From an uncultured archaeon (GTDB lineage: Archaea; Aenigmatarchaeota; Aenigmatarchaeia; QMZP01): a stretch of 64,000 nucleotides of DNA. The notes below the pieces were generated by a model. It did no database searches. It saw only the letters and a program-made list of their open reading frames with translations, and was not told the DNA's origin. The stretch is taken from assembly GCA_964484305.1 (NCBI GenBank), contig CAZAEI010000002.1, positions 11,715 to 75,714 of the forward strand, in the 5' to 3' direction. Made by a program: the position numbers and the translations under genes. This document shows positions 310-63,771 of the stretch, one piece after another; the stretch's first letter is position 1; every line of letters starts with the position of its first letter.

Positions 310-3300
310 CTATGCCCTCAGGGACTCCCTTATCTTCTTGTCAAGCTCGGCCAGCCTCTGCTCGCTCCTGTTCTTGAGGCTCTCATAGGCCTCCCTGGAT
401 ATAATCTTCTGCCTGTACTGACTCTCGAGGAGAGCCATCATCCTGGTTGTCTTGGCCTTCTCCTCCCTGAGCTTCTCGGTCTCCAGGCCGGCGCCCCTTA
501 CTGTCCCTGCAACCTGCCTGGCCTCGGAGAGCCTTCCGCGTAAAATCAGCGAAAGCCTCTTGTTCATCTTTCTGTAGGCAAATACAAGGAATGCTATTAC
601 AGCCAGGACAACCAGGGCGAATATGAGCAGTGTCAGTATCTCAGGTGGCAGCGCGAAACCGGTCAGGAGCTTGTTGAGGAGCTTCTCGGCATTGTCAAGG
701 AGTTCCCAAGCAGCGTAGACAGAGTCAAGGGCAGCGTCATAGAGGTTCTCCCTCAGGTAGCCCTCGGCGAGCTTTATCTCGTTCTCGGCATCGTCTAAGA
801 GGTCGTCAATCTCGCTGGTGTCGAACCCGGCCTCCTGGGCCTGCTCGGCCCTGTTCCTGAGTTCCTCGAGCTTTGCCTTGAGCCTGACGAGCTCGAAGTT
901 TATGAGGTCCTTCTTGGATGTGAATATCCTGAGCAGGAACTCCTCTTCGTCCGTGGACTCGGTGGAGTGGGCAACCACCCTGACTGTCCTCTCTCCTGAC
1001 TCCCCCCTCTCGGGGGTTATCTGGACCGTGATAATCGCGCTCTCTCCGGCCGCCAGGCTGCTTATGTTGGCGGGGTTGGTTATCACCCACTCACCAGGGA
1101 TCCCCTGTAAACCGAGCCATATGTTGTGGAGAGGGCCGCCCACTGCCTCGACCTCTATGTTGAACGGCCTTGGAAGGCCTGCCATAACGCCAATCTCATC
1201 AGGAATCCTGGTTATGTTTATCTTTCCCGAGGGACCGGCCGAGGGTGGGGGGGCTCCCTCACCCTCCCCTCCGCCACCGGGCTCCTCCGGGGGGGCCTCC
1301 CCTGTCACACTGAATCCTGCGCTGGCAGGGGCGGACGGTATGGAGGGGTCATAGAGGACTCTGACCTCCACGGTGTATCCCCCGGGTGGCTGGTGGGAAT
1401 ATATGAACAGGCCGTTTGATGGGCGGAATGTCATCTCCATGCCTGCCCCGATGTTGGGGGTTATCTGGCCGGAGTCCCAGGAGCGGTCAGGGCCCTGTAC
1501 CCAGTAGTCTATAATCACGTCCTCGTTGTCGACCTCGCCCTTGTTCCAGACCGTTATGTTGAAATACATGCTGTTGCCCGGGGCTATCTCCTCCTGGTCA
1601 AGGATGACCTCGACGTCATAGGGCCCTGAGGAGGATATCCTGAAGGCGAGGATGTCATGGGTCTCCTTTTCGCCGAGACTTACCCTCAGGAGGGCAAGGT
1701 ATGTCCCCGTAAGGACGCTGCTCAGAACCTCGGTGAGGGAATAGAAGCCCGCTGCTGTGTGGTTGAAGTCATCTATGTCATACTCCTTCCAGAGGTCGAG
1801 GTTGTATCCCTCGGTTCTGTATATGGTGAGGTTGATGCTATCAGGGTCCGCGGGCTCGTTATAGTTCTGCAGGACAACCACTGATACAGGCATGGCATGG
1901 TCAACCACGCAGGGGCTCGGTATGGCAAGCTTTCCCGTGAGCTCCATGTCTGCGGTCACGTTGAAGGTCACAGCAGTCTCGTTGCCCGTCCAGATATCGA
2001 ACTCCGGGTCGTACCAGGAGCCATTGGAATAAATCGTATACTCCCCCAGGGAGGCGTGGGAGGGTATCACAAAGATGTTGTCAGAGACCCAGCCCGTTTC
2101 ATCGGTCACATACTCCCTGCCCGAGAGCATGTAGACGCTCCTGTTGTCGGGGTCCTTGACAGTGAGGTTTACAGGGGCCCCGGCAAGGGATGCCCCGAGG
2201 TAGTCATGGGCCCGGTAGTTTATGCTCTCCCACCTTCCCTGGGTGGTGTCCGGCATGTCAAGGTAGACCACGTAGCGGGCGTGTGTCTGGAATAGGGAGG
2301 TGTTGGTGGCATTTACATCATAGGTGTCGTTGGCAAAGACATAGACCGTGTAGTTCCCTCTCTGGGTACTGTTGCCGCTGAAGTCGCCCGGATAGGTTAT
2401 CTTGTAGCAGAACATGTCACCGGGGTCATTGATTGCATAGACGCAGCCCGGGGGGAAATCCGGGTCCCTGTGGGAGAACTGCAGCTCGAGTGTGTCGTTG
2501 GTCCCGTCGGGCCTCTCCACGGTCACTATCACGTCGTCAAAATCTGCTCCTGACTGGCTGGTCACGTTGATGTACATTGTCGCGGTATCGGCCTGGGACT
2601 GCATATCAGGGATTATGCCAATCTCGATAAGGGGCTCCACAAAGGGGTTGAGGACAATCTCCAGGGTGATGTTGTCCGGGTCAGCCGATGCCTCTGTGGT
2701 GTTTATGGTATAGTTGGTCAGGAAGAATCCGGAGCCCGCATCCCCGCCCATGTCATAATAGATAGTGAGATTTGTGCTGTTCTGCTTGCTGATGTTGTGG
2801 CTGCTCCAGCCCGGGGTGGTGTGGTTGGCCCCGCCAGGGGGATAGAGCGAGAGGTTGAGCTGTATGTTTCCGGTGTTGCCTATACTAACGTTGCAGACAA
2901 TCCCTGTGTTGGGGCTCTGGGCATGCTCGCAGTGGGTGGGGTAGGCTGTCCAGGAGCCGTTCTCGGGCACGGTTATGTTCAGGTAGAGGCTCTTGTTCCC
3001 GTTGTTGCCTGAGGTGACGTTCAGGGTTCCGTTGTAGCAGCCCGGGTCGAATCCGGGGGGTATGGTCGCGTTTACCTTGACTGTCCTGAAGTCCCCGGGT
3101 GTCATGTTGAAGGGATAGCTCTGGTTGAAGCCCATGGTGAAGTTCTCGAACTCCCCGCTCAGGGTGAAGTTGACGAAGAGCGCGTCGTCGTTGCCTGTGG
3201 AGCGGAGCGTTATGTTGCCGACAAGGATGGAGGTGCCGTGCTCCATGGTCCTGTCAAAGCTGTCCTCAAGGACCTCAAGCGTGACATTGGAGGCCACGCT

Positions 3301-6198
3301 CACGTTTATGGCGGTGCTCGCATTCCTCCAGGATATCCCGATATCCTCCCAGAATATGGTTGCATTGATTGCATAATCCCCCGCATGGGTGAGTTCGGTT
3401 ATGTTGACGAGGAAATATGTCATGCAGACCTCTCCCTTGGTCAGGTTATAGCAGGACTGGTTGGTGTAGTTTATGAACCAGGTCTCTGGAAGGGAGACAT
3501 TCACATAGGAATTGAAGGCCGTGGTGTTGCCTGTGTTTGTCACGTTCACAGAGAAATCGAAGCTCTCATTGGAGAATGCGGTGACATACAAGGCAGTATA
3601 GGTCCCGGGTGTCGCGTTTATGATAAGGTTGGTCCCGGTGACTGTTATCGTGGTGTTGAGAAGCTCGTAGCCGCCGTTGTCAGAGGTGACGTTTATCACA
3701 CCCTCATAGACCCCCGGGGACTGGCCCGCCGGGATGCTCACATTCACCTGTACTGGCTGCTCCCCTCCAGGGCCCATGGAGCTTATGTCGGGCGGGGTGA
3801 AGGCTATGGTGAAATTATCCAGACCGAGTGGGGTTAGTGTTATGTTCAGGGTGTCGTTGTTTCCCAAGGACCTTACCATGAGGGTTTCGATAAGCTCGGA
3901 TGTCGCGCCGGGCGGGAGTATGCCTGTCACGTTCTCCTGGAGCACATCGAGCACCGGGTTCTCGTGGACGGTCACGGTGACGTTTGTCGTGTTCGAATCG
4001 TGGGAGCCCACCCTGTTGGTCCAGTTTGCTGTTATGTTGATTATGTAGTCCCTGGCCACTGAGTTGTTGAGAACCGTGATGTTGAAGTCCTTGGTGCAGG
4101 AGAGGTCTATGAGTATCTTTCCGCATGGCTCAAAGGTGGAGTTGGAGGACAGGTTGTCAGGAAGGTCCAGGGTGATGTTTGCCTCGTATGCTGTCGAGTT
4201 CTCCAGGTTATGGAGTGTAACCTTCAGGTTGAAGGATTCGTTGTCATAGAACATCACGTTGTAGGCCTGGTAGGTGCTGGGGTCAGGGGTCACGCTTATC
4301 TTGGTCTCAGGGGCCTCGACAGTATAGTTCTCCACGGTGAATCCCCAGCTCCCGTCCTCCCCGAAGGAGCAGTTGAGTGGGTAGAGGCCATAGTCAAAGG
4401 GTGTCTGGAAGGTCACTGTGTAGGTCCCGTTCCCGTGGTCTGTTATGTTCCCTGGAGGGACCTGGTCCCCGGCAGTGGTGCAGTTTATGTCAGTGGCCCC
4501 GGGTATCGTGATGTCCTGCCTGAAGTTTGTCACGTTCACTGTCGCATTCTCGACCCTGTAGATGCCTGTCTCGTTCCATATCGTTATGTTGACGTGGAGC
4601 TCTACTGTCATGTTGAAGGTGTAGTAGCTCTCGTTCAGGAAGGAGCCGTCCACATCATAGGTCCTCACTGTCATGTTCCAGTAGCCCGGGGTCTCGGAAT
4701 TGGTGAAGTTGTAGTAGGCTGTGTAGTTCCCGTCCCCTGAAATCGGGTCTGGATAGGCCCCGTCATCCAGGAGCTGCACGGTTACATCGTCTCCGGGGCT
4801 CCCAGGGGTTCCCATGTCGAGGGTGGCGTTGATATGGTCGACCAGGGACCAGTCGTCCCTGGTTGTGTTGGCCCCGAGAATCGCGGACTCGTTCCTGTTG
4901 TAGATGTCGTGGTCCGGCTCCGGCTCTAGGGCGATGACCCAGAACTCGGGCTCCCCCTCGGTTATGTTGATGTTGTTCATGAACCGGTCGCTGGTGTCTG
5001 TAAGCAGGTTCGGACTGTTCACGGTGTGGAAGAATACCATGACAGCCCTGTCCTGGATTGATTGGCCTGGCTGGATATCGGTCATGCTCAGGTTGATTCC
5101 TATCCTGTCGTTGTCGGGGGCGCCGCCGATGGAGGAGTTGCCTGCGATGAAGTTGACTGTCCCGTTCTCCCAGAGATGGGCATAGCCTCCACGCTCCATG
5201 CCGAACCCGGGGAACCCGTATACAGTGGAGCCGGGATCCTGGGACTGGTCAGGGGTGACCTTGTACCCGGACTCGTACGCACCTAGGACATCGAAGCCCG
5301 GAAGGCCCGCATAGGAGTCCCTGCTCACGGTAACCGAGTCGTTTATGTTGATAATCTCGTGCTCCACCACAAACCAGGTCTTGTTGGGATAGAACCTGTA
5401 GGTCTTTTTGAGATAGGTCATGTTGGTCCTGTTGCCGGGATCGTTCCAGTAGGTCTCGTAGCCCTCCTGGCGGACTGTTATCCTGGCAGGGCCCTCGGAA
5501 AAGCTTGCGTTTCCCCTCAGGTCATAGGCGAGGTCCTCGGCACCGTCAGTGGTCTGGATGAACTCCCTGGTCTTCTCGCCGGGCCCTGAGGGCTCGAGGG
5601 GGATGTCATCCTTGAGCCAGTACCTGTAGAGGCCCGAGGTGTTCTCGCTCCTGTTGGTGTCAAAGGTAAAGAAGCCGTATCGCTCCCCGGGATTGTTGTT
5701 GAAGGTTATGTTGAATTCGTCGCCGTCCCAGGATTTCTCCATAATTGTGCTGTAGGAGGCCTCTGTTTTTGGTGACTCCTGAGTATCGAAATACAGATAG
5801 AACCACCTCTCGGTGTGTTCTGCTGTCGTTCCGTTCAGGATGAATACCATGGTCCCGGCCGCATTGGAGCCCGCTTCGTAGTCCCCGGCCTTGTCGAACT
5901 GGCTCGGGAGCTCGTGAAGCACCCCGCCGCTGGCATTGACCTCGACCATCCTCGTGGAGTTCCCGTCAAGGCTGGCTGTGATGTTAAGGTCCTCAAGGAG
6001 GGAGGTGAAGTTTACATCGTACTCGACCGGCCATTCGAACCGCTCATAGTAGGAGGTGTTCACCGTGAGCTTTACCCTGTGGTGCCAGGAGCCGTTCCAC
6101 CACACATCACCATAGGCCTGGGGGACTGTCTGGTTGCTGACCATGAGCAGGGCTAGGAAAGCCACTGCAGCCAGTGTATATGCCAGCCTTCTCATCAT
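310..6198 (-). CDS. 1,962-aa TM-anchored surface glycoprotein. It has a signal peptide, a DUF2341-like N-terminal domain, CARDB/S-layer-like beta-sandwich repeats, a PEG-rich linker, a helical region, a TM helix and a cytoplasmic coiled-coil tail with a SHOCT-like motif.
   Basis: The ORF is long and uninterrupted. SD GGAGTGAT lies 2 nt upstream of ATG 6198 and 5 nt upstream of ATG 6195, so the second ATG may be the true start. N-terminus MMRRLAYTLAAVAFLALLMVSNQTVPQAYG. The WWNGSWHHRVKLTVN...WFYLYFD block resembles DUF2341. NxS/T sequons are dense. The C-terminal TM is LTLLIFALVVLAVIAFLVFAY followed by RKMNKR. The tail is ...QYRQKIISREAYESLKNRSEQRLAELDKKI. The start lies 9 nt after the stop of the upstream gene. 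Confidence 0.9.
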   Translation of the reverse strand: MMRRLAYTLAAVAFLALLMVSNQTVPQAYGDVWWNGSWHHRVKLTVNTSYYERFEWPVEYDVNFTSLLEDLNITASLDGNSTRMVEVNASGGVLHELPSQFDKAGDYEAGSNAAGTMVFILNGTTAEHTERWFYLYFDTQESPKTEASYSTIMEKSWDGDEFNITFNNNPGERYGFFTFDTNRSENTSGLYRYWLKDDIPLEPSGPGEKTREFIQTTDGAEDLAYDLRGNASFSEGPARITVRQEGYETYWNDPGNRTNMTYLKKTYRFYPNKTWFVVEHEIININDSVTVSRDSYAGLPGFDVLGAYESGYKVTPDQSQDPGSTVYGFPGFGMERGGYAHLWENGTVNFIAGNSSIGGAPDNDRIGINLSMTDIQPGQSIQDRAVMVFFHTVNSPNLLTDTSDRFMNNINITEGEPEFWVIALEPEPDHDIYNRNESAILGANTTRDDWSLVDHINATLDMGTPGSPGDDVTVQLLDDGAYPDPISGDGNYTAYYNFTNSETPGYWNMTVRTYDVDGSFLNESYYTFNMTVELHVNITIWNETGIYRVENATVNVTNFRQDITIPGATDINCTTAGDQVPPGNITDHGNGTYTVTFQTPFDYGLYPLNCSFGEDGSWGFTVENYTVEAPETKISVTPDPSTYQAYNVMFYDNESFNLKVTLHNLENSTAYEANITLDLPDNLSSNSTFEPCGKILIDLSCTKDFNITVLNNSVARDYIINITANWTNRVGSHDSNTTNVTVTVHENPVLDVLQENVTGILPPGATSELIETLMVRSLGNNDTLNITLTPLGLDNFTIAFTPPDISSMGPGGEQPVQVNVSIPAGQSPGVYEGVINVTSDNGGYELLNTTITVTGTNLIINATPGTYTALYVTAFSNESFDFSVNVTNTGNTTAFNSYVNVSLPETWFINYTNQSCYNLTKGEVCMTYFLVNITELTHAGDYAINATIFWEDIGISWRNASTAINVSVASNVTLEVLEDSFDRTMEHGTSILVGNITLRSTGNDDALFVNFTLSGEFENFTMGFNQSYPFNMTPGDFRTVKVNATIPPGFDPGCYNGTLNVTSGNNGNKSLYLNITVPENGSWTAYPTHCEHAQSPNTGIVCNVSIGNTGNIQLNLSLYPPGGANHTTPGWSSHNISKQNSTNLTIYYDMGGDAGSGFFLTNYTINTTEASADPDNITLEIVLNPFVEPLIEIGIIPDMQSQADTATMYINVTSQSGADFDDVIVTVERPDGTNDTLELQFSHRDPDFPPGCVYAINDPGDMFCYKITYPGDFSGNSTQRGNYTVYVFANDTYDVNATNTSLFQTHARYVVYLDMPDTTQGRWESINYRAHDYLGASLAGAPVNLTVKDPDNRSVYMLSGREYVTDETGWVSDNIFVIPSHASLGEYTIYSNGSWYDPEFDIWTGNETAVTFNVTADMELTGKLAIPSPCVVDHAMPVSVVVLQNYNEPADPDSINLTIYRTEGYNLDLWKEYDIDDFNHTAAGFYSLTEVLSSVLTGTYLALLRVSLGEKETHDILAFRISSSGPYDVEVILDQEEIAPGNSMYFNITVWNKGEVDNEDVIIDYWVQGPDRSWDSGQITPNIGAGMEMTFRPSNGLFIYSHQPPGGYTVEVRVLYDPSIPSAPASAGFSVTGEAPPEEPGGGGEGEGAPPPSAGPSGKINITRIPDEIGVMAGLPRPFNIEVEAVGGPLHNIWLGLQGIPGEWVITNPANISSLAAGESAIITVQITPERGESGERTVRVVAHSTESTDEEEFLLRIFTSKKDLINFELVRLKAKLEELRNRAEQAQEAGFDTSEIDDLLDDAENEIKLAEGYLRENLYDAALDSVYAAWELLDNAEKLLNKLLTGFALPPEILTLLIFALVVLAVIAFLVFAYRKMNKRLSLILRGRLSEARQVAGTVRGAGLETEKLREEKAKTTRMMALLESQYRQKIISREAYESLKNRSEQRLAELDKKIRESLRA

Positions 6199-6207
6199 TT
6201 ATCACTC

Positions 6208-8034
6208 CTATTTCCTGTCTCCCTCTTTGCTGTTCTTTTTCACCCCAGTCTCGCCCCTAGACTTCCCCTTGGGGATGAGCCTCCTGACCTTCTCAAAGGC
6301 CTTCCTGCTTATCAGGCCCCTCATAAGGGAGTCCTCGAGTTGCGAGAGCAGGCTCGCCTGCCCGTCGCCAGAAGGCTTCTCGGGCCTGGGTTTGGTGGAG
6401 CCCTCTGGTAGGGGCTTTGCTTCTGGCTTCTGCTCGACCGGCTTCTCACCTGGCAGGGTCCCTGCCTTCTCAGGCTTCTCACCGGTAGGCGGTGCCTTGG
6501 AGGGCTGCGACTCAGGGGACTTGGCCTCACTTGTCTCATCAGGCCCCCCGCCCGCTGCAGGTGCTGACATGGGAGGCGCGGGTTCGCCGGCCCTGGCGGT
6601 CTCACCCGGAGAGGTTGCCTTTTCAGCCCACTCCCGGGGGCTCGGGGCGCCGGGGGTGGCCTCGGATATCTTATTGTCAATTTCCCTGAGCCTGCCCAGG
6701 TTTATCTGCTTGGTCTTCTGGTATTCCTTTTCGGGGAGGGCCCCTGCCTTGAACTGCTCGTCCAGCATGGCTATCAGTCCCTCGATTTCGGTCTTCTGGG
6801 ACCCGAGCCTCTGGACATCGGGGCTTGTCCCTGCCCCGGTCTTTATTGAGGCCAGCTCGGTCTCTGTGGTGTCCCTGAACAGCTCGAGGTCGCTCTTCTC
6901 GGCATACTTCTGCATCTTTATGTTGATATCGTCCAGGGATTTCATCATCTCCTGGGAGAGCTCGTCCAGGGTGTCCTGCTTGGCCTTGTATAGCACGAAC
7001 TCGTCCAGGCGCTTGTTGAGCTCCATGAATATGCCGTCTATCTTGTCGGCAATCCTGCTTATCCTCTTTTCCCTGTTCTCGATTTCAAGGAGCCTCTTGG
7101 CAGCCTCCTTGGAGAAGTTGACAATCTTCTCAAGGCTTCCCAGCCTCTTGAGGACATTCTCTATCTGGCCCAGCCTCTTGAGCATGAGCGAGGTCATCTC
7201 ATCCAGCTTGTCGATTCTGGCCCCGTGCACCTTTATTGAGGCGTCCTCCTCCCTCATGGCCTTGAGGAACCTCTGGGGCCTCATGTCTCCCAGGGACTCG
7301 TCAACCCCGGTCACCCTTATCTCGGACTCGCTGAGCCTCCTGTCCAGGCCGGACACGTTGGAGCGGATTTCCCCCACCTCCTCAGTGAGCCGCTGCATGC
7401 CCTCCCTTCCTGTGGAGCGCTCGTCCTTCATGGAGTCAAGGTAGGCCCGGACCTTTTCGAGCTGTACCTCGATCTTGTCCACCCTGGGCGCGACCTCTAT
7501 TCCCTGGGGCTTGATTTCCTTCAGTGTCTTGGTTAGTATATCCTTGATTTCATCCGCAGTGTACCTGAGGGTTCCGGGCTTTCCCCCTCTGGCAGCGCCC
7601 GGGGCCTTCTCGGGCTTCACCTCCCCGACCTCGCCGGCGATGTCTGTGAGGGGCTGGGGTATTCCTGCGTATTCCGTGGACTCGGCCTCTGGTGTTGTGA
7701 CTGGAGGGGCTGTCTCGGCAGAGGGTGCGGCAGGGGCTGTTGGAGGTGCTGATACAGCTGGGGCAGGCTCGGGTTCCTTGGCCCCCCGGGCCTTCCTAGG
7801 CTTCTCTGATTTCTTTGCGGGCTCTGGCTTCTCCTTCTCGGCCTTCTTGGCCTCGCTCTTCTCGAGCCTCTCTATCATTTTATTGAGCTCCTCGAGCTTC
7901 TTCTGGTTCTTGCCCTTCACCTCATTGTAGTGCTCCTCGGTTATGCTGGCCTCCCTGTAGGCCTCCTCGAGTGTGGAGAGCAGTATCTCGATATCCTCCT
8001 TGTGCTTCTGAAGTTCCGTAAGGGTTTCTTTCAT
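6208..8034 (-). CDS. 608-aa cytoplasmic coiled-coil protein with P/A/E/K-rich linkers and three SHOCT-like motifs. No signal peptide or TM is visible.
   Basis: SD GGAGGTG lies 5 nt upstream of ATG 8034. Heptad-like, charged sequence runs through the centre. The motifs are ASITEEHYNEVKGKNQKKLEEL, GALPEKEYQKTKQINLGRL and GLISRKAFEKVRRLI, which resemble the G-x-I-[ST]-x-x-E-[YF]-x-x-x-K consensus of SHOCT (PF09851). The antisense ORF 6134-7444 is a shadow ORF. Confidence 0.85.
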   Translation of the reverse strand: MKETLTELQKHKEDIEILLSTLEEAYREASITEEHYNEVKGKNQKKLEELNKMIERLEKSEAKKAEKEKPEPAKKSEKPRKARGAKEPEPAPAVSAPPTAPAAPSAETAPPVTTPEAESTEYAGIPQPLTDIAGEVGEVKPEKAPGAARGGKPGTLRYTADEIKDILTKTLKEIKPQGIEVAPRVDKIEVQLEKVRAYLDSMKDERSTGREGMQRLTEEVGEIRSNVSGLDRRLSESEIRVTGVDESLGDMRPQRFLKAMREEDASIKVHGARIDKLDEMTSLMLKRLGQIENVLKRLGSLEKIVNFSKEAAKRLLEIENREKRISRIADKIDGIFMELNKRLDEFVLYKAKQDTLDELSQEMMKSLDDINIKMQKYAEKSDLELFRDTTETELASIKTGAGTSPDVQRLGSQKTEIEGLIAMLDEQFKAGALPEKEYQKTKQINLGRLREIDNKISEATPGAPSPREWAEKATSPGETARAGEPAPPMSAPAAGGGPDETSEAKSPESQPSKAPPTGEKPEKAGTLPGEKPVEQKPEAKPLPEGSTKPRPEKPSGDGQASLLSQLEDSLMRGLISRKAFEKVRRLIPKGKSRGETGVKKNSKEGDRK

Positions 8035-8058
8035 ATCAACACCTCCATATCCTTTCTA

Positions 8059-8076
8059 TCAGTCCCTGAAGGGACT
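8059..8076 (-). promoter_or_regulatory. GC-rich hairpin CAGTCCC-TTCA-GGGACTG (minus-strand reading) in the about 100-nt junction between the giant gene and the coiled-coil gene.
   Basis: A perfect 7-bp inverted repeat is read directly. It lies 13 nt upstream of the SD GGAGGTG of the 8034 start. The stem core GTCCC...GGGAC matches the hairpin family at 53.1, 58.8 and 63.2 kb. Confidence 0.5.
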
Positions 8077-8134
8077 GCGTGCACTCCAGTGCAACAGCTC
8101 CTTAACTTCCTGTTATGCAGCTTTGTCATCTGCA

Positions 8135-52712: not shown

Positions 52713-53129
52713 TTAATCTGGTTTGCCATCAGCGAGCTCGAACTTGATCCCGTACTGGATGAGCCCCGAGGAACCGTCCTCGTGAATCTTCCTGAAGACC
52801 GGTCTGACCCGCATATCTATATCCACATCGTCCGGATTGCCTATCACCTGGCCGGATATCCTGGTTCCCTCATCGAGCTCGATTATGGCCACTGCATAGG
52901 GCGTGTATTTCTCGAAGCCCTCCGGGGGGACCCTGATTACGGTGTATGAGATTATACTGCCGAGGCCTGAGAACCGGAATTCCCTGATATCGCCCCTGCG
53001 CCTGCATGCAGGACAGAAGTCCTTGGGTGGGAAGTACGCTGTGTTGCAGGTGTGGCACTTCGTTCCCGTAAGGGTGTACCTGCTCTTCTGGAGCCTCCAG
53101 TACAGGGGGACGCTTGACCTGTGAGTCAT
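52713..53129 (-). CDS. DUF35 Zn-ribbon/OB-fold protein, the scaffold of the archaeal thiolase/HMG-CoA synthase complex.
   Basis: CHTCNTAYFPPKDFCPACRRRG forms a Zn ribbon and is followed by an OB-fold-like C-terminus. SD AAGGTGA lies 5 nt upstream of ATG 53129. The ORF-track extension MHAVPKGRKVSD is a translation of the hairpin repeat. Confidence 0.85.
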   Translation of the reverse strand: MTHRSSVPLYWRLQKSRYTLTGTKCHTCNTAYFPPKDFCPACRRRGDIREFRFSGLGSIISYTVIRVPPEGFEKYTPYAVAIIELDEGTRISGQVIGNPDDVDIDMRVRPVFRKIHEDGSSGLIQYGIKFELADGKPD

Positions 53130-53134
53130 ATCAC

Positions 53135-53250
53135 TCACCTTCCGTCCCTTCGGGACGGCATGCACTCATTCACCTTCCGTCCCTTCGGGACGGCATGTAC
53201 TCATTCACCTTCCGTCTGGTTTCATCCTGTTAATGACGGCATGTAATCAT
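53135..53250 (-). repeat. Three tandem hairpin plus SD units (35, 35 and 46 nt) filling the junction between thiolase and DUF35.
   Basis: The minus-strand units read (ATGAGTRC)ATGCCGTCCC-GAA-GGGACGGAAGGTGA. The third unit keeps both flanks but has a longer loop (CCGTC-attaacaggatgaaacca-GACGG). Confidence 0.85.
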
Positions 53251-54429
53251 TTACCTCTTTAATTTGGCGTCAGGGTTGGCCAGTATGCTGACCACCGCTG
53301 TTGCGCCGCTTCCTCCTATATTGAGGGCAAGACCTATGTTGACGCCGCTGACCTGCATGGGACCGTAATTGCCACGGAGCTGCATGGTCAGGTCAGCCAG
53401 CTGCCTTATGCCCGTTGCCCCCACCGGGTGGCCCACTGACTTGAGGCCGCCGGTTGTGTTTGTGGGTATCTCACCGCCTCTGGCCATCCTGCCCTCCTCC
53501 ACAAACCTGCCTCCCTGACCCTTCTCGCAGAACCCAAGGTCCTCCAGTGCGATGATTTCGTTTATGGAGAAGCAGTCATGGACCTCGGCTATGTCAATGT
53601 CCTTGTGTCCCAGGCCGGTCTCCTGGTAGGCCTTCCTGGCAGCCACCCTGGTGGCATTGAGCTCGGTAAGGCTCGCGCGGTCGTGCAGGGCAAGGGCGTC
53701 AGTGGCCTGCTGCGTACTGAGAACCCATATAGGGTTTTCAAGCTTCCTGGCAACATCCTCTGATGCCAGTATGACTGCTGCTGCGCCGTCTGTTATGGGA
53801 GAGCAGTCCAGGAGGGTGAGGGGGTCTGATATCATCGGGGACTTGAGGACCTGGTCCACTGTTACATCGTACCTGAACTGGGCCCTCTCGTTCAGGACCC
53901 CGTTTTTGTGGTTGTTCACGCTGACCATGGCCATCTGCTCCCTGGTGGTTCCGTACCGGGCCATGTGGCGCCTCGCTATGAGGGCATATAGCCCTGTAAA
54001 GGTAAGGCCTATGCTGGACTCCCATTCCTGGTCGCCCGCGCCCATGAGGGTGGCTATGGCGTCTGTCCCCTTGAGGTCGGTCATCTTCTCTGCGCCGGCT
54101 GCCATGATTACGTCATGCCTGCCGCTCTCTATGGCAATGCAGGCGTTCTTGAACGCCAGGGCCCCTGAGGCGCAGGCTGCCTCGAACCTGGTGGCCGGGA
54201 TGGGGGTCAGCCCTGCATGGTCAGCTGCCAGGGCCCCCAAGTGCTCCTGGCCGATGAACCTGCCTGCAGACATGTTGCCCACATAGAGGGCCTGGATGTC
54301 CTTGCCGTCCAGTTTGGAGTCCGCGAGGGCAAAGGCCCCTGCCTCTGTGGAGAGGTCCCTCAGGGAGCGCTCCCACTGCTCCCCGAATTTTGTGTATCCC
54401 ACGCCAACGATGGCGACCCTTCTAGCCAT
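53251..54429 (-). CDS. Acetyl-CoA C-acetyltransferase (archaeal thiolase).
   Basis: MARRVAIVGVGYTKFGE, the catalytic Cys context EAACASGALAF, and a C-terminal GGLKSVGHPVGATG block. SD AGGTGAT lies 4 nt upstream of ATG 54429. Confidence 0.9.
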   Translation of the reverse strand: MARRVAIVGVGYTKFGEQWERSLRDLSTEAGAFALADSKLDGKDIQALYVGNMSAGRFIGQEHLGALAADHAGLTPIPATRFEAACASGALAFKNACIAIESGRHDVIMAAGAEKMTDLKGTDAIATLMGAGDQEWESSIGLTFTGLYALIARRHMARYGTTREQMAMVSVNNHKNGVLNERAQFRYDVTVDQVLKSPMISDPLTLLDCSPITDGAAAVILASEDVARKLENPIWVLSTQQATDALALHDRASLTELNATRVAARKAYQETGLGHKDIDIAEVHDCFSINEIIALEDLGFCEKGQGGRFVEEGRMARGGEIPTNTTGGLKSVGHPVGATGIRQLADLTMQLRGNYGPMQVSGVNIGLALNIGGSGATAVVSILANPDAKLKR

Positions 54430-54661
54430 GAATATCACCTTCAGGGAGATTATTTAAGGGCCAGTAAAATCTTCCCATAACCCTGCCTCCGTTATAGATT
54501 TCGGCAAACACCCCTATTTCTAAAGGAATTATGTTGTAATGCCTCGGTAAGGATACCGAGTCTCCTGTTCTCTCCGCATGACTTATGTAGCCTTCCATGT
54601 CATCTCTCCATCCTGGCCAAAGCCCCTCGAATCTGTCAAGGAAGTCTTCGCGTGCACCCAT
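54422..54661 (-). CDS. Hypothetical 79-aa protein filling the HMGCS-thiolase gap.
   Basis: The ORF starts 4 nt after the HMGCS stop codon and ends overlapping the thiolase start. No recognisable motif and no strong SD. Confidence 0.35.
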   Translation of the reverse strand: MGAREDFLDRFEGLWPGWRDDMEGYISHAERTGDSVSLPRHYNIIPLEIGVFAEIYNGGRVMGRFYWPLNNLPEGDIHG

Positions 54662-54665
54662 AAAA

Positions 54666-58150: not shown

Positions 58151-58759
58151 CTAGATGCTGTCCGATTTCAGGATTCTCACAATCTCAAAGGCCTCGGCGT
58201 GGCTTACTGCGGGGCCGAGCCCCCTGAACTGGCTGAGGCCCCGGATGGCATTGATTTTCATGTAGTCCCGGCCGTTCTGGGTAGTGAACTTGTTGAGTAT
58301 TTCTATCTTCCTGTCTATATAGCTGCTGATGTCCACATAGTAGTTGGGATTGAAGTTCAGGTAGAGGCTCGGGGACTCGTAGGCGAATATCTCCGGGACG
58401 AACCTGGCCGCCGAGAGGGTCGCATAGGCCGCGTTCCGGTGGTCCTGGTGGGTGTCCCTGACAGAGTGGGTGTAGACCCTTCTTGGATTCAAATCCTTGA
58501 TGATGGCCTCGAGTTTTTCTATCAGTTCGTGGCTCTGGGGTACTGCGGTGTCAGGGAAATCAAACATTTGGAGCTTGGCCCCGATTTTTCTGGCAGACTC
58601 CCCGGCCTCCCTGGTCCTTACCTCAGGGTCGCCTCCCCTTTCGCCCCTGCTGAGGATTACAAAGGTTACCTCGTCCCCCCTCTTGATATGCCTCATGATT
58701 GTTCCGGTACATCCGAACTCTATGTCGTCCGGGTGTGCGCCTATTGCAATGATGTTCAT
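58151..58759 (-). CDS. PIG-L/LmbE-family N-acetylglucosaminyl deacetylase.
   Basis: The AIGAHPDDIEFG motif and HQDH. The hairpin plus SD unit lies directly upstream. Confidence 0.85.
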   Translation of the reverse strand: MNIIAIGAHPDDIEFGCTGTIMRHIKRGDEVTFVILSRGERGGDPEVRTREAGESARKIGAKLQMFDFPDTAVPQSHELIEKLEAIIKDLNPRRVYTHSVRDTHQDHRNAAYATLSAARFVPEIFAYESPSLYLNFNPNYYVDISSYIDRKIEILNKFTTQNGRDYMKINAIRGLSQFRGLGPAVSHAEAFEIVRILKSDSI

Positions 58760-58765
58760 ATAATA

Positions 58766-58797
58766 TCACCTTCCGTCCCTGCGGGACGGCATACACT
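58766..58797 (-). repeat. Single hairpin plus SD unit (ATGCCGTCCC-GCA-GGGACGGAAGGTGA) between the ATP-grasp and PIG-L genes.
   Basis: It matches the core of the units at 53.1 and 63.2 kb. The SD lies 6 nt upstream of ATG 58759. Confidence 0.85.
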
Positions 58798-58810
58798 CCA
58801 TCTCCCTCGT

Positions 58811-63198: not shown

Positions 63199-63321
63199 AG
63201 GAGTGCATGCCGTCCCGCAGGGACGGAAGGTGATGGGGTGTATGCCGTTCCGATGCCCCTTGTGGCATAAGAGGAACGGAGGGTGAAGGAGTACATGCCG
63301 TCCCGCAGGGACGGAGGGTGA
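63199..63321 (+). repeat. Three tandem hairpin plus SD units (35, 53 and 35 nt) immediately upstream of the 63328 start.
   Basis: GTGCATGCCGTCCC-GCA-GGGACGGAAGGTGA; then TATGCCGTTCC-N21-GGAACGGAGGGTGA; then GTACATGCCGTCCC-GCA-GGGACGGAGGGTGA followed by tatgatATG. Confidence 0.85.
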
Positions 63322-63327
63322 TATGAT

Positions 63328-63771
63328 ATGTCAAGCACCATGAAGCCGGCAGCTGCCATAATCATACTGATAATCATGGTCCTCTCGGCAGTGGGGTTTG
63401 CCATGAACAGTGCCACCTTCCAGCAGGAGCCCCCGGCCCCGGAGATACCCACTGTCATCAGGGAGCCTATTAGCCCTGACCAGCAGATACAGATTCTGAG
63501 GAGCGGCAGGGTCCTTATAGAGCATTTCTATCAGGAGAACTGCACGGACTGCCTGGACAAGAACGCCCAGCTCGAGACCTTTGCGAGCAGGCTCGAGGGC
63601 TATGTCGTCGTGAACGAGGTCGTGGGGAACGAGAGCAGGCTGGATATTATCGGGGCCGGAGGGAGGATAACAGACCTGACAGGCAAGCCCCTGGATTACG
63701 AGGGCCTGCTGGACACCTTCTGCGAGGTTGCGATAGCTCAGCCCAGGGCCTGCATCATAAGGGAGTTCTAG
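63328..63771 (+). CDS. Membrane-anchored thioredoxin-like protein (CxxC).
   Basis: N-terminal TM AAAIIILIIMVLSAVGFA. HFYQENCTDCLDKN contains CTDC in a thioredoxin-like context. A strong SD is supplied by the last hairpin unit. Confidence 0.5.
   Translation: MSSTMKPAAAIIILIIMVLSAVGFAMNSATFQQEPPAPEIPTVIREPISPDQQIQILRSGRVLIEHFYQENCTDCLDKNAQLETFASRLEGYVVVNEVVGNESRLDIIGAGGRITDLTGKPLDYEGLLDTFCEVAIAQPRACIIREF

Follow-up and report, generated by a model that had tools for sequence, protein, structure and literature searches.

The stretch of DNA analysed here (the window) comprises 64,000 nucleotides (nt) of contig CAZAEI010000002.1, from an uncultured archaeon whose thiolase and ribosomal protein S4e have their nearest named relatives in the Aenigmatarchaeota. 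On its minus strand, a thiolase gene (Pfam Thiolase_N/C) is followed by a DUF35-type gene (52713-53129; Pfam zf-ChsH2 and OB_ChsH2_C). The thiolase start is an ATG three codons inside a 395-aa open reading frame (ORF) with a GTG start. The gap of 121 nt between the two genes (window 53130-53250) is filled by three head-to-tail repeat units, each with a hairpin and each ending in AAGGTGA, the ribosome-binding (Shine-Dalgarno, SD) sequence of this organism. Read in the direction of the genes, the junction consists of the following parts, with matches to the covariance model (CM) described below:

53251..53253, minus strand: thiolase stop codon TAA, in aaagAGGTAA; the relatives L052, L020 and L056 have AGGTGA here, and its TGA is the thiolase stop
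53205..53250, minus strand: 46-nt unit ATGATTACATGCCGTCATTAACAGGATGAAACCAGACGGAAGGTGA; CM match, E = 0.012
53170..53204, minus strand: 35-nt unit ATGAGTACATGCCGTCCCGAAGGGACGGAAGGTGA; CM match of 43.9 bits, E = 6e-11; RNA fold of -14.6 kcal/mol
53135..53169, minus strand: 35-nt unit ATGAGTGCATGCCGTCCCGAAGGGACGGAAGGTGA, the last in the array; CM match; the extra copy relative to locus L017
53127..53134, minus strand: spacer GTGAT (5 nt) and the ATG of the DUF35-type gene, where gene callers put the start of a 138-aa protein

A reading of the window made from the letters alone (the sequence-only reading) had described three hairpin units filling this gap, and the minus strand bears out the layout, the gap length and the stem with its triloop. 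The 35-nt unit at 53170..53204 can be parsed as ATGAGTACATG-CCGTCCC-GAA-GGGACGG-AAGGTGA, where a 7-bp stem carries a GAA triloop of the GNA type (z = -3.5 for the RNA fold; -8.2 kcal/mol when folded as DNA). The 46-nt unit has the usual 5' flank with its ATG, a 5-bp stem (CCGTC/GACGG), an 18-nt loop ATTAACAGGATGAAACCA and AAGGTGA. Tandem Repeats Finder reports the array with a period of 35, 2.5 copies, 96% matches and a score of 158, and the window holds five occurrences of the pattern CCGTCCC-N3-GGGACGG, where shuffles predict 0.01. Independent assemblies from JGI and Logan show the same array structure, and it is therefore no assembly artefact. Five independent k-mer assemblies (Logan contigs L010, L011, L013, L015 and L016) end 63 nt past the thiolase stop, inside the second unit; the repeats fragment short-read assemblies of this organism.

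The canonical unit, RGTRYATG-CCGTCCC-GNA-GGGACGG-ARGGTGA, also precedes two more genes in the window, and a diverged unit lies at a further junction:

58766..58800, minus strand: single 35-nt unit with loop GCA at the ATP-grasp/PIG-L junction; CM match; followed by TATTAT and an ATG at 58759
63199..63233, plus strand: 35-nt unit with loop GCA, first of three at the junction of a nitroreductase gene and a 147-aa ORF; CM match
63234..63286, plus strand: 53-nt unit with the compensated stem CCGTTCC/GGAACGG, which encloses a kink-turn-like internal loop; CM match
63287..63321, plus strand: 35-nt unit ending in GGGTGA; CM match; followed by TATGAT and an ATG at 63328
8056..8086, minus strand: diverged unit GAGTGCACG-CAGTCCC-TTCA-GGGACTG-A, between a gene of 13,441 aa and the next gene; CM match of 31.4 bits, E = 5e-7

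The diverged unit has lost the ATG of the flank and keeps its stem through a double change from C-G to A-U. The copies are concentrated in the last 11 kb of the window because the first 48 kb are almost wholly taken up by two giant genes.

To describe the placement of the units, we built a covariance model from 13 of them and ran it on 187 kb from eight loci. All 23 full-length matches (E < 0.02) are in the sense orientation and lie between same-strand genes; matches on the opposite strand cover only the palindromic core. In every array found, the last unit ends in AAGGTGA, GGGTGA, GGAGA or GGCGA, 4-6 nt ahead of a start codon. This species was sampled over ~85 kb, one third of which is a ribosomal-protein cluster; counted by hand from the gene tables, units occupy about 11 of 40 same-strand junctions there, and none of about nine divergent or convergent gaps. 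Promoter-like TTTAAATA boxes are present in other gaps, with none inside the arrays. The link to start codons proposed in the sequence-only reading is thus supported, as every array is in sense and ends just before a start codon. The same reading had held that a lack of preference for start codons would point to a plain repetitive extragenic palindromic (REP) or MITE-like repeat, MITEs being miniature transposable elements with inverted repeats. The preference is absolute; nonetheless, the units behave as a repeat family.

We compared the junctions with those of relatives, whose syntenic regions we retrieved via the thiolase and S4e proteins. The thiolase-DUF35 gap of 121 nt in the window is 5 nt long in L052 (87% thiolase identity; aagAGGTGA-TAATC-atg), 4 nt in L056 (76%; cgAGGTGA-GAAT-atg) and 17 nt in L057 (74%). 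At the ATP-grasp/PIG-L junction, the 51 nt of the window compare with 4 nt in L052, 10 nt in L054 and 1 nt in L056, or with overlapping genes, and the 178 nt between the nitroreductase gene and the 147-aa ORF compare with 18-67 nt without canonical units. Two junctions of the ribosomal-protein cluster show the same: the KH-RpoD gap measures 261 nt in L046, the cluster of the same species, but 9 nt in L050 (GTGATATGA), with the last 9 nt identical, and the L24-S4e gap measures 86-167 nt in L046-L049 but 1 nt in L050. No unit occurs in 41 kb of two outgroups (74-76% thiolase identity). As the relatives' junctions are short and often have the stop inside AGGTGA, the arrays are derived insertions at once tightly coupled junctions, and the empty sites contradict a clade-wide stability of the arrays as orthologues. 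To judge from the relatives, the ancestral junction had its stop inside or adjoining the ribosome-binding site and its ATG a few bases on, the textbook arrangement for translational coupling. In the window and in L017, decay has turned the old AGGTGA into AGGTAA, which remains in use as the thiolase stop; it is the remnant of an ancestral ribosome-binding site overlapping that stop, while the AAGGTGA of the unit at 53135..53169 is the predicted working ribosome-binding site of the DUF35 gene.

The arrays also change in whole units. Between samples of one species, the L24-S4e array has three, four or five units (counting the first, which lies inside the L24 ORF), with gaps of 86, 132 and 167 nt, and the length steps are exactly 46 or 35 nt. 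At the thiolase-DUF35 junction, L017 has a 46-nt unit and one 35-nt unit, two in all versus three in the window. L050 has no units at several junctions that are occupied in L046; before S17, it carries a canonical GAA unit where L046 has none, and between S8 and the next gene it has more units than L046. L055 (73% S4e identity) has one 46-nt unit at L24-S4e, plus other family members. A small mobile repeat was among the options left by the sequence-only reading, and it is this option that the empty sites in relatives, the whole-unit differences between samples and the copies at non-orthologous junctions support. The family also shows how tightly coupled genes can come to be separated by 35-260 nt while the downstream gene is retained, examples being the thiolase/HMG-CoA synthase/DUF35 genes and ribosomal-protein genes.

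The family extends well beyond the window. In L046, seven junctions hold related units (S11-S19, S17-L14, L24-S4e, L5-S14, S14-S8, S8-next gene and KH-RpoD). Many of these are longer (60-125 nt): the same 5' flank (GTGCAYRWG) is followed by a GC hairpin that varies and by a tail that is conserved, CATGCTTACCAGAATGAAAGGTTAAGGTGA. The tail is 30 nt long, of fixed length and strongly conserved, and it is found mainly in the ribosomal-protein cluster, at these sites:

L046: 11344-13745
L050: 11594-12161
L055: 4148-4202, 10286-10414, 11430-11575 and 12641-12676

The 46-nt type of unit recurs at L24-S4e of L046, L051 and L055, and at thiolase-DUF35 of L017. Its loop, ATTAACAGGATGAAACCA, resembles the core TTACCAGAATGAAAGG of the longer units' tail, so that the units come out as mosaics built from a few modules. 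One unit (L046 8559-8588) has the hairpin loop TTC, the reverse complement of GAA, within normally oriented flanks, and looks like a flipped stem-loop. A scan of a metagenome collection matched 24 stretches, of which one (L029, at the L24-S4e junction) is a true family member. The pattern CCGTCCC-N3-GGGACGG-ARGGTGA gave six chance-like matches in a collection of species-representative genomes without this organism, and the unit motif gave no match in a viral collection.

Units can also enter reading frames. The L24 frame runs into the first unit (L046 9880-9914, equal to L029 1021-1055), and the protein ends in ...NEHMPSRRDGR (KGKVNEHMPSRRDGR); the ribosomal protein L24 of L046 thus carries a repeat-encoded C-terminal tail. 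A protein search with unit-encoded peptides (in sense and antisense frames), meant as a census of ORFs running into units, gave no match.

Both the fold and the letters of the units are constrained. In a model-fitted alignment of 17 distinct units, 95.6% of cells pair, double changes occur at two of the seven stem pairs (C-G to U-A/A-U, and C-G to G-C), and none of 500 shuffles and none of the slid controls reaches the observed covariation score. This supports the hairpin, and would fit RNA and single-stranded DNA alike. Between these species, identity at third codon positions is 62-72%. For the pair L046 and L055, it is 67%, whereas their 46-nt units reach 91%, and two species share an unchanged 27-nt core of the 35-nt unit at sites that are not orthologous. 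Since the unit is conserved across species above the third-position rate, something presumably reads the sequence itself, beyond its fold.

One variant has a further structure. The 53-nt unit at 63234-63286 reads CCGTTCC-GA-UGCC...GGCA-UAA-GA-GGAACGG, and so has the parts of a kink-turn: a non-canonical (NC) stem, tandem G.A pairs, a canonical (C) stem and a 3-nt bulge. Its relatives in L046 and L051 (GA-UACCCC...GGGGCA-CAA-GA) have covarying NC stems. With a strict kink-turn descriptor, this unit was the only clean intergenic match; the 12 matches elsewhere in 202 kb (both strands) comprise 11 that are coding by hand check and one (in L052) that lies partly outside a called gene. The match of the 53-nt unit is thus only suggestive. 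However the flanks of the units at 53130-53250 are arranged, none of the three has GA/GA next to its stem, so these do not form a kink-turn, and when we tried by hand to read plain 35-nt and 46-nt units as kink-turns or K-loops, none fitted.

Taken together, the thiolase-DUF35 spacer is probably a three-member array of a clade-wide, modular, tandemly amplifying intercistronic repeat, resembling REP and BOX elements, that supplies its own ribosome-binding site; we favour this reading while leaving real room for others. The array sits exactly at the ancestral junction of 4-5 nt, where the TGA of the thiolase lay within AGGTGA, and its last unit provides a new AAGGTGA 5 nt before the ATG. Units would have been inserted or copied at a ribosome-binding site. 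Each unit follows and ends in the same 7-mer, AAGGTGA, and whole units could therefore be gained or lost between these direct repeats, by slippage or recombination. The seeding of new junctions might involve template switching at the microhomology of ribosome-binding sites, or else a hairpin-recognising enzyme. At the mRNA level, coupling by termination and reinitiation would be replaced by independent initiation at the unit's own ribosome-binding site, and each unit's hairpin would form a stable stem between cistrons. The cross-species conservation suggests that the sequence is read by a mobilising enzyme or by an RNA-binding protein.

Several points weigh against this reading. Conservation above the synonymous rate and the kink-turn variants would suit a function for the host at least as well as they suit a purely selfish repeat. 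The copying mechanism is our inference: neither the gene tables nor Pfam scans of unannotated neighbours showed a transposase or other mobilising gene in ~250 kb of the clade. The occupation of one quarter of junctions comes from the ~85 kb sampled and may differ genome-wide. Finally, selection acting on units inserted at random could account for the strict sense orientation, without any targeting. A more ambitious version of the repeat reading, which we hold only tentatively, is a self-propagating ribosome-binding-site cassette: a hairpin read by a dedicated protein would enter operons precisely where stop and ribosome-binding site overlap in translationally coupled genes, and repay the host with a fresh site, and the variants with a kink-turn or CAGRAUGAAA motif would have been co-opted as a modular translational insulator or operator at about a quarter of junctions, those of ribosomal-protein operons included. 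The family offers a concrete system for asking whether such a repeat is parasite, insulator or operator.

It is also conceivable, although we think it rather unlikely, that the units are cis-regulatory RNA operators of the host, where a protein on the hairpin beside the ribosome-binding site would tune translation of the downstream gene, and the regulon would have grown by repeat-like spread. The candidate proteins would be L7Ae for the kink-turn variants and, where the GNA hairpin and CAGRAUGAAA motif are concerned, some other RNA-binding protein. In other archaea, L7Ae regulates through kink-turns beside ribosome-binding sites, and represses its own mRNA in this way (PMC5539422, PMC6298567). 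The 53-nt unit and its L046 and L051 relatives are similar to these operators in that their 3-nt bulge and tandem G.A pairs lie directly 5' of the ribosome-binding site; the covarying hairpin, the retention of unit sequence above the synonymous rate (also at non-orthologous sites across species) and the density of units in the ribosomal-protein cluster, which encodes L7Ae too (at L046 12772-13035), are all consistent with an operator. The known L7Ae operators differ, however, in being single-copy and confined to l7ae and a few other mRNAs (PMC5539422, PMC6298567), whereas here the motif rides on a repeat family. Moreover, the genes downstream of the units are functionally unrelated (DUF35, PIG-L deacetylase, the 147-aa ORF, ribosomal proteins and RpoD), and the units at 53130-53250 do not have a kink-turn at all. 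The strict descriptor also matches those 12 other places, mostly coding. Copy number varies within a species and arrays are absent in close relatives, which would be unusual for a selected operator.

Alternatively, the units might serve as intercistronic elements of RNA stability or processing, whose hairpins would block exonucleases and define the ends of mRNA segments, so that genes of the same operon would differ in expression, as do the REP elements and bacterial interspersed mosaic elements (BIMEs) of E. coli. An intercistronic role of this kind is established for the REP elements at malE-malF; reference 4 of PMC12306157 reportedly describes an intercistronic element. The hairpin of the 35-nt unit is stable, its core is predicted to fold in all three terminal contexts of the window, and all arrays lie within presumptive operons with no promoter-like TATA box inside. 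This explanation leaves the ribosome-binding-site end of every unit and the conservation of the flank unaccounted for, and the 46-nt unit is the most conserved yet has a weak fold (-8.6 kcal/mol for RNA; z = -0.75 for DNA). We regard a stability or processing role as improbable.

The hairpin does not appear to control access to the ribosome-binding site either. The covarying stem stops 3 nt short of GGTGA, and the predicted pairing of the ribosome-binding site varies by locus. [quoted passage not shown] Readings as terminator, promoter or tRNA-like element were likewise rejected (no T runs, no TATA box, no Rfam tRNA).

Each unit had also been described as containing a mini-ORF, MPSRRDGR, running from the ATG of the flank to the TGA of the ribosome-binding site. 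This is true of the near-identical 35-nt copies; in the 46-nt unit, the frame stops at an internal TGA (MPSLTG), as it does in all 46-nt units, 17 nt early. The TGA was further said to overlap the next unit's ATG. It abuts it instead (TGA-ATG), and the ATGA overlap belongs to another frame (MSTCRPEGTEGE, then a stop). Beyond the near-identical copies, the full mini-ORF is also present in the 53-nt unit and a single unit of 80 nt (the second at L5-S14 of L046). The S17-L14 unit has no ATG, five units have ATT, CTG or AAG in its place, other diverged units are out of frame, and the last unit of L017 has no TGA, so that its mini-ORF continues and ends in ATGA on the DUF35 start. With ATG, frame or stop lost in most of the diverged units, the mini-ORF is no conserved feature. 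We accordingly rejected an upstream-ORF or termination-reinitiation coupling device, whose diverged members should share start, frame and stop, and we treat the mini-ORF as a by-product of a conserved flank that contains ATG and a ribosome-binding site that contains TGA.

A mini-ORF relay, in which ribosomes leaving the thiolase gene would re-initiate on MPSRRDGR-type mini-ORFs, melt the hairpins and pass to the DUF35 start, seems to us very improbable. Canonical units do have their ATG 8 nt past the preceding GGTGA, with the ORF ending at the TGA of the next, and the frame kept in the 53-nt and 80-nt units and the ATGA of L017 would also suit such a relay. However, the canonical 35-nt copies are near-identical and hence count as one observation, and the relay fares badly with the early stops, lost ATGs and broken frames just described. 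The unit at 8056-8086 preserves its stem by a double change while losing its ATG, and in two arrays the first unit lacks a suitably spaced ribosome-binding site upstream. The repeats have also misled start calling, with calls of 150 aa and 138 aa for DUF35, and at the S17 start of L050.

We also compared the units with known elements. Rfam gave no match at gathering score in the window, and over the arrays nothing relevant at E <= 1. No description of such elements turned up in the literature searches, and neither Rfam nor the literature searched held a family that combines a ribosome-binding-site end, a strict tie to start codons and head-to-tail arrays in archaeal operons. Small palindromic repeats are well known in bacteria, and the closest known kind are the REP, BIME and REPIN elements. 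These resemble the present units in being GC-rich imperfect palindromes of ~35 nt with conserved flanking bases, present in many copies, extragenic, inside transcription units and in clustered arrays, with a consensus shared across species at non-orthologous sites; all 23 covariance-model matches in the 187 kb are likewise intergenic. The inverted pairs of REPINs and BIMEs, by contrast, were not seen here, where all units are direct, head-to-tail and sense, and the host is an archaeon. REPs mostly follow stop codons, whereas these units end in a ribosome-binding site and their arrays abut a start codon. No gene for a RAYT (a Y1 HUH transposase) flanked by repeats was found in the gene tables or Pfam scans of the DNA examined, which covers a small part of the genome.

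Other repeat classes fit in part. The inverted repeat of the units is internal, not terminal as in MITEs, and the AAGGTGA direct repeats that flank them could be either a target duplication or the phase of a tandem array. The head-to-tail arrangement and whole-unit copy polymorphism are those of a minisatellite, or variable number tandem repeat. A CRISPR array was rejected, as the units abut without spacers. The palindromic elements of Rickettsia are also hairpin repeats invading compact genomes, with no strict orientation and no link to translation signals. The RHEs of sponge mitochondria (PMC2800124), small hairpin repeats in the short spacers of compact genomes that sometimes extend reading frames, likewise show neither strict orientation nor a link to translation signals. 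The BOX elements of Streptococcus pneumoniae (PMC3049150) are modular, have a middle module in variable tandem number and a predicted fold, are transcribed with neighbouring genes and vary in copy number between strains. They differ in having no sequence relation to our units, in belonging to another domain of life, in their terminal inverted repeats and in lacking a tie to ribosome-binding sites or start codons. The TAACTGA heptamers of Beggiatoaceae and cyanobacteria (PMC4679880) are forward-oriented just upstream of start codons and show whole-unit insertions and deletions between strains, but they are 7-nt units without a hairpin in bacterial hosts, do not themselves resemble a ribosome-binding site, and displace such a site rather than supply one.

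Some observations concern the neighbouring genes. An uninterrupted ORF of 13,441 aa (8135-48460, minus strand) and a neighbouring ORF of 1,962 aa (310-6198, minus strand) make up three quarters of the window, and relatives have ORFs of 5,000-13,450 aa at the same place. In the spacer between HMG-CoA synthase and thiolase (window 54430-54665, minus strand), the window has a small ORF, as do L052, L054 and L020 (58-92 aa); in L017, no more than 5 nt separate the two genes.

Within the ribosomal-protein cluster of L046 lie genes for a PALP-domain enzyme (5143-6021, minus strand) and for a 397-aa protein without a Pfam match (6631-7824, plus strand); both are missing at that place in L050 and L051. 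Upstream of rpS17, a GC-rich conserved region (L046 7900-7975; also in L050, L051 and L055) reads GCTGAGTTACCCAC...GGGCC..GGCCC...GAAGGTAGAGAGGCTG.ATTGTTTCTCTACA. It has no Rfam match, shows apparent compensatory changes and lies in the leader of the S17-L14-L24 genes, and it may be an undescribed structured leader. Lastly, on a relative's 58-kb contig, L055 1751-2635 (plus strand) encodes bacterial sigma-70 domains (PF04542, PF04545) beside archaeal ribosomal-protein genes.

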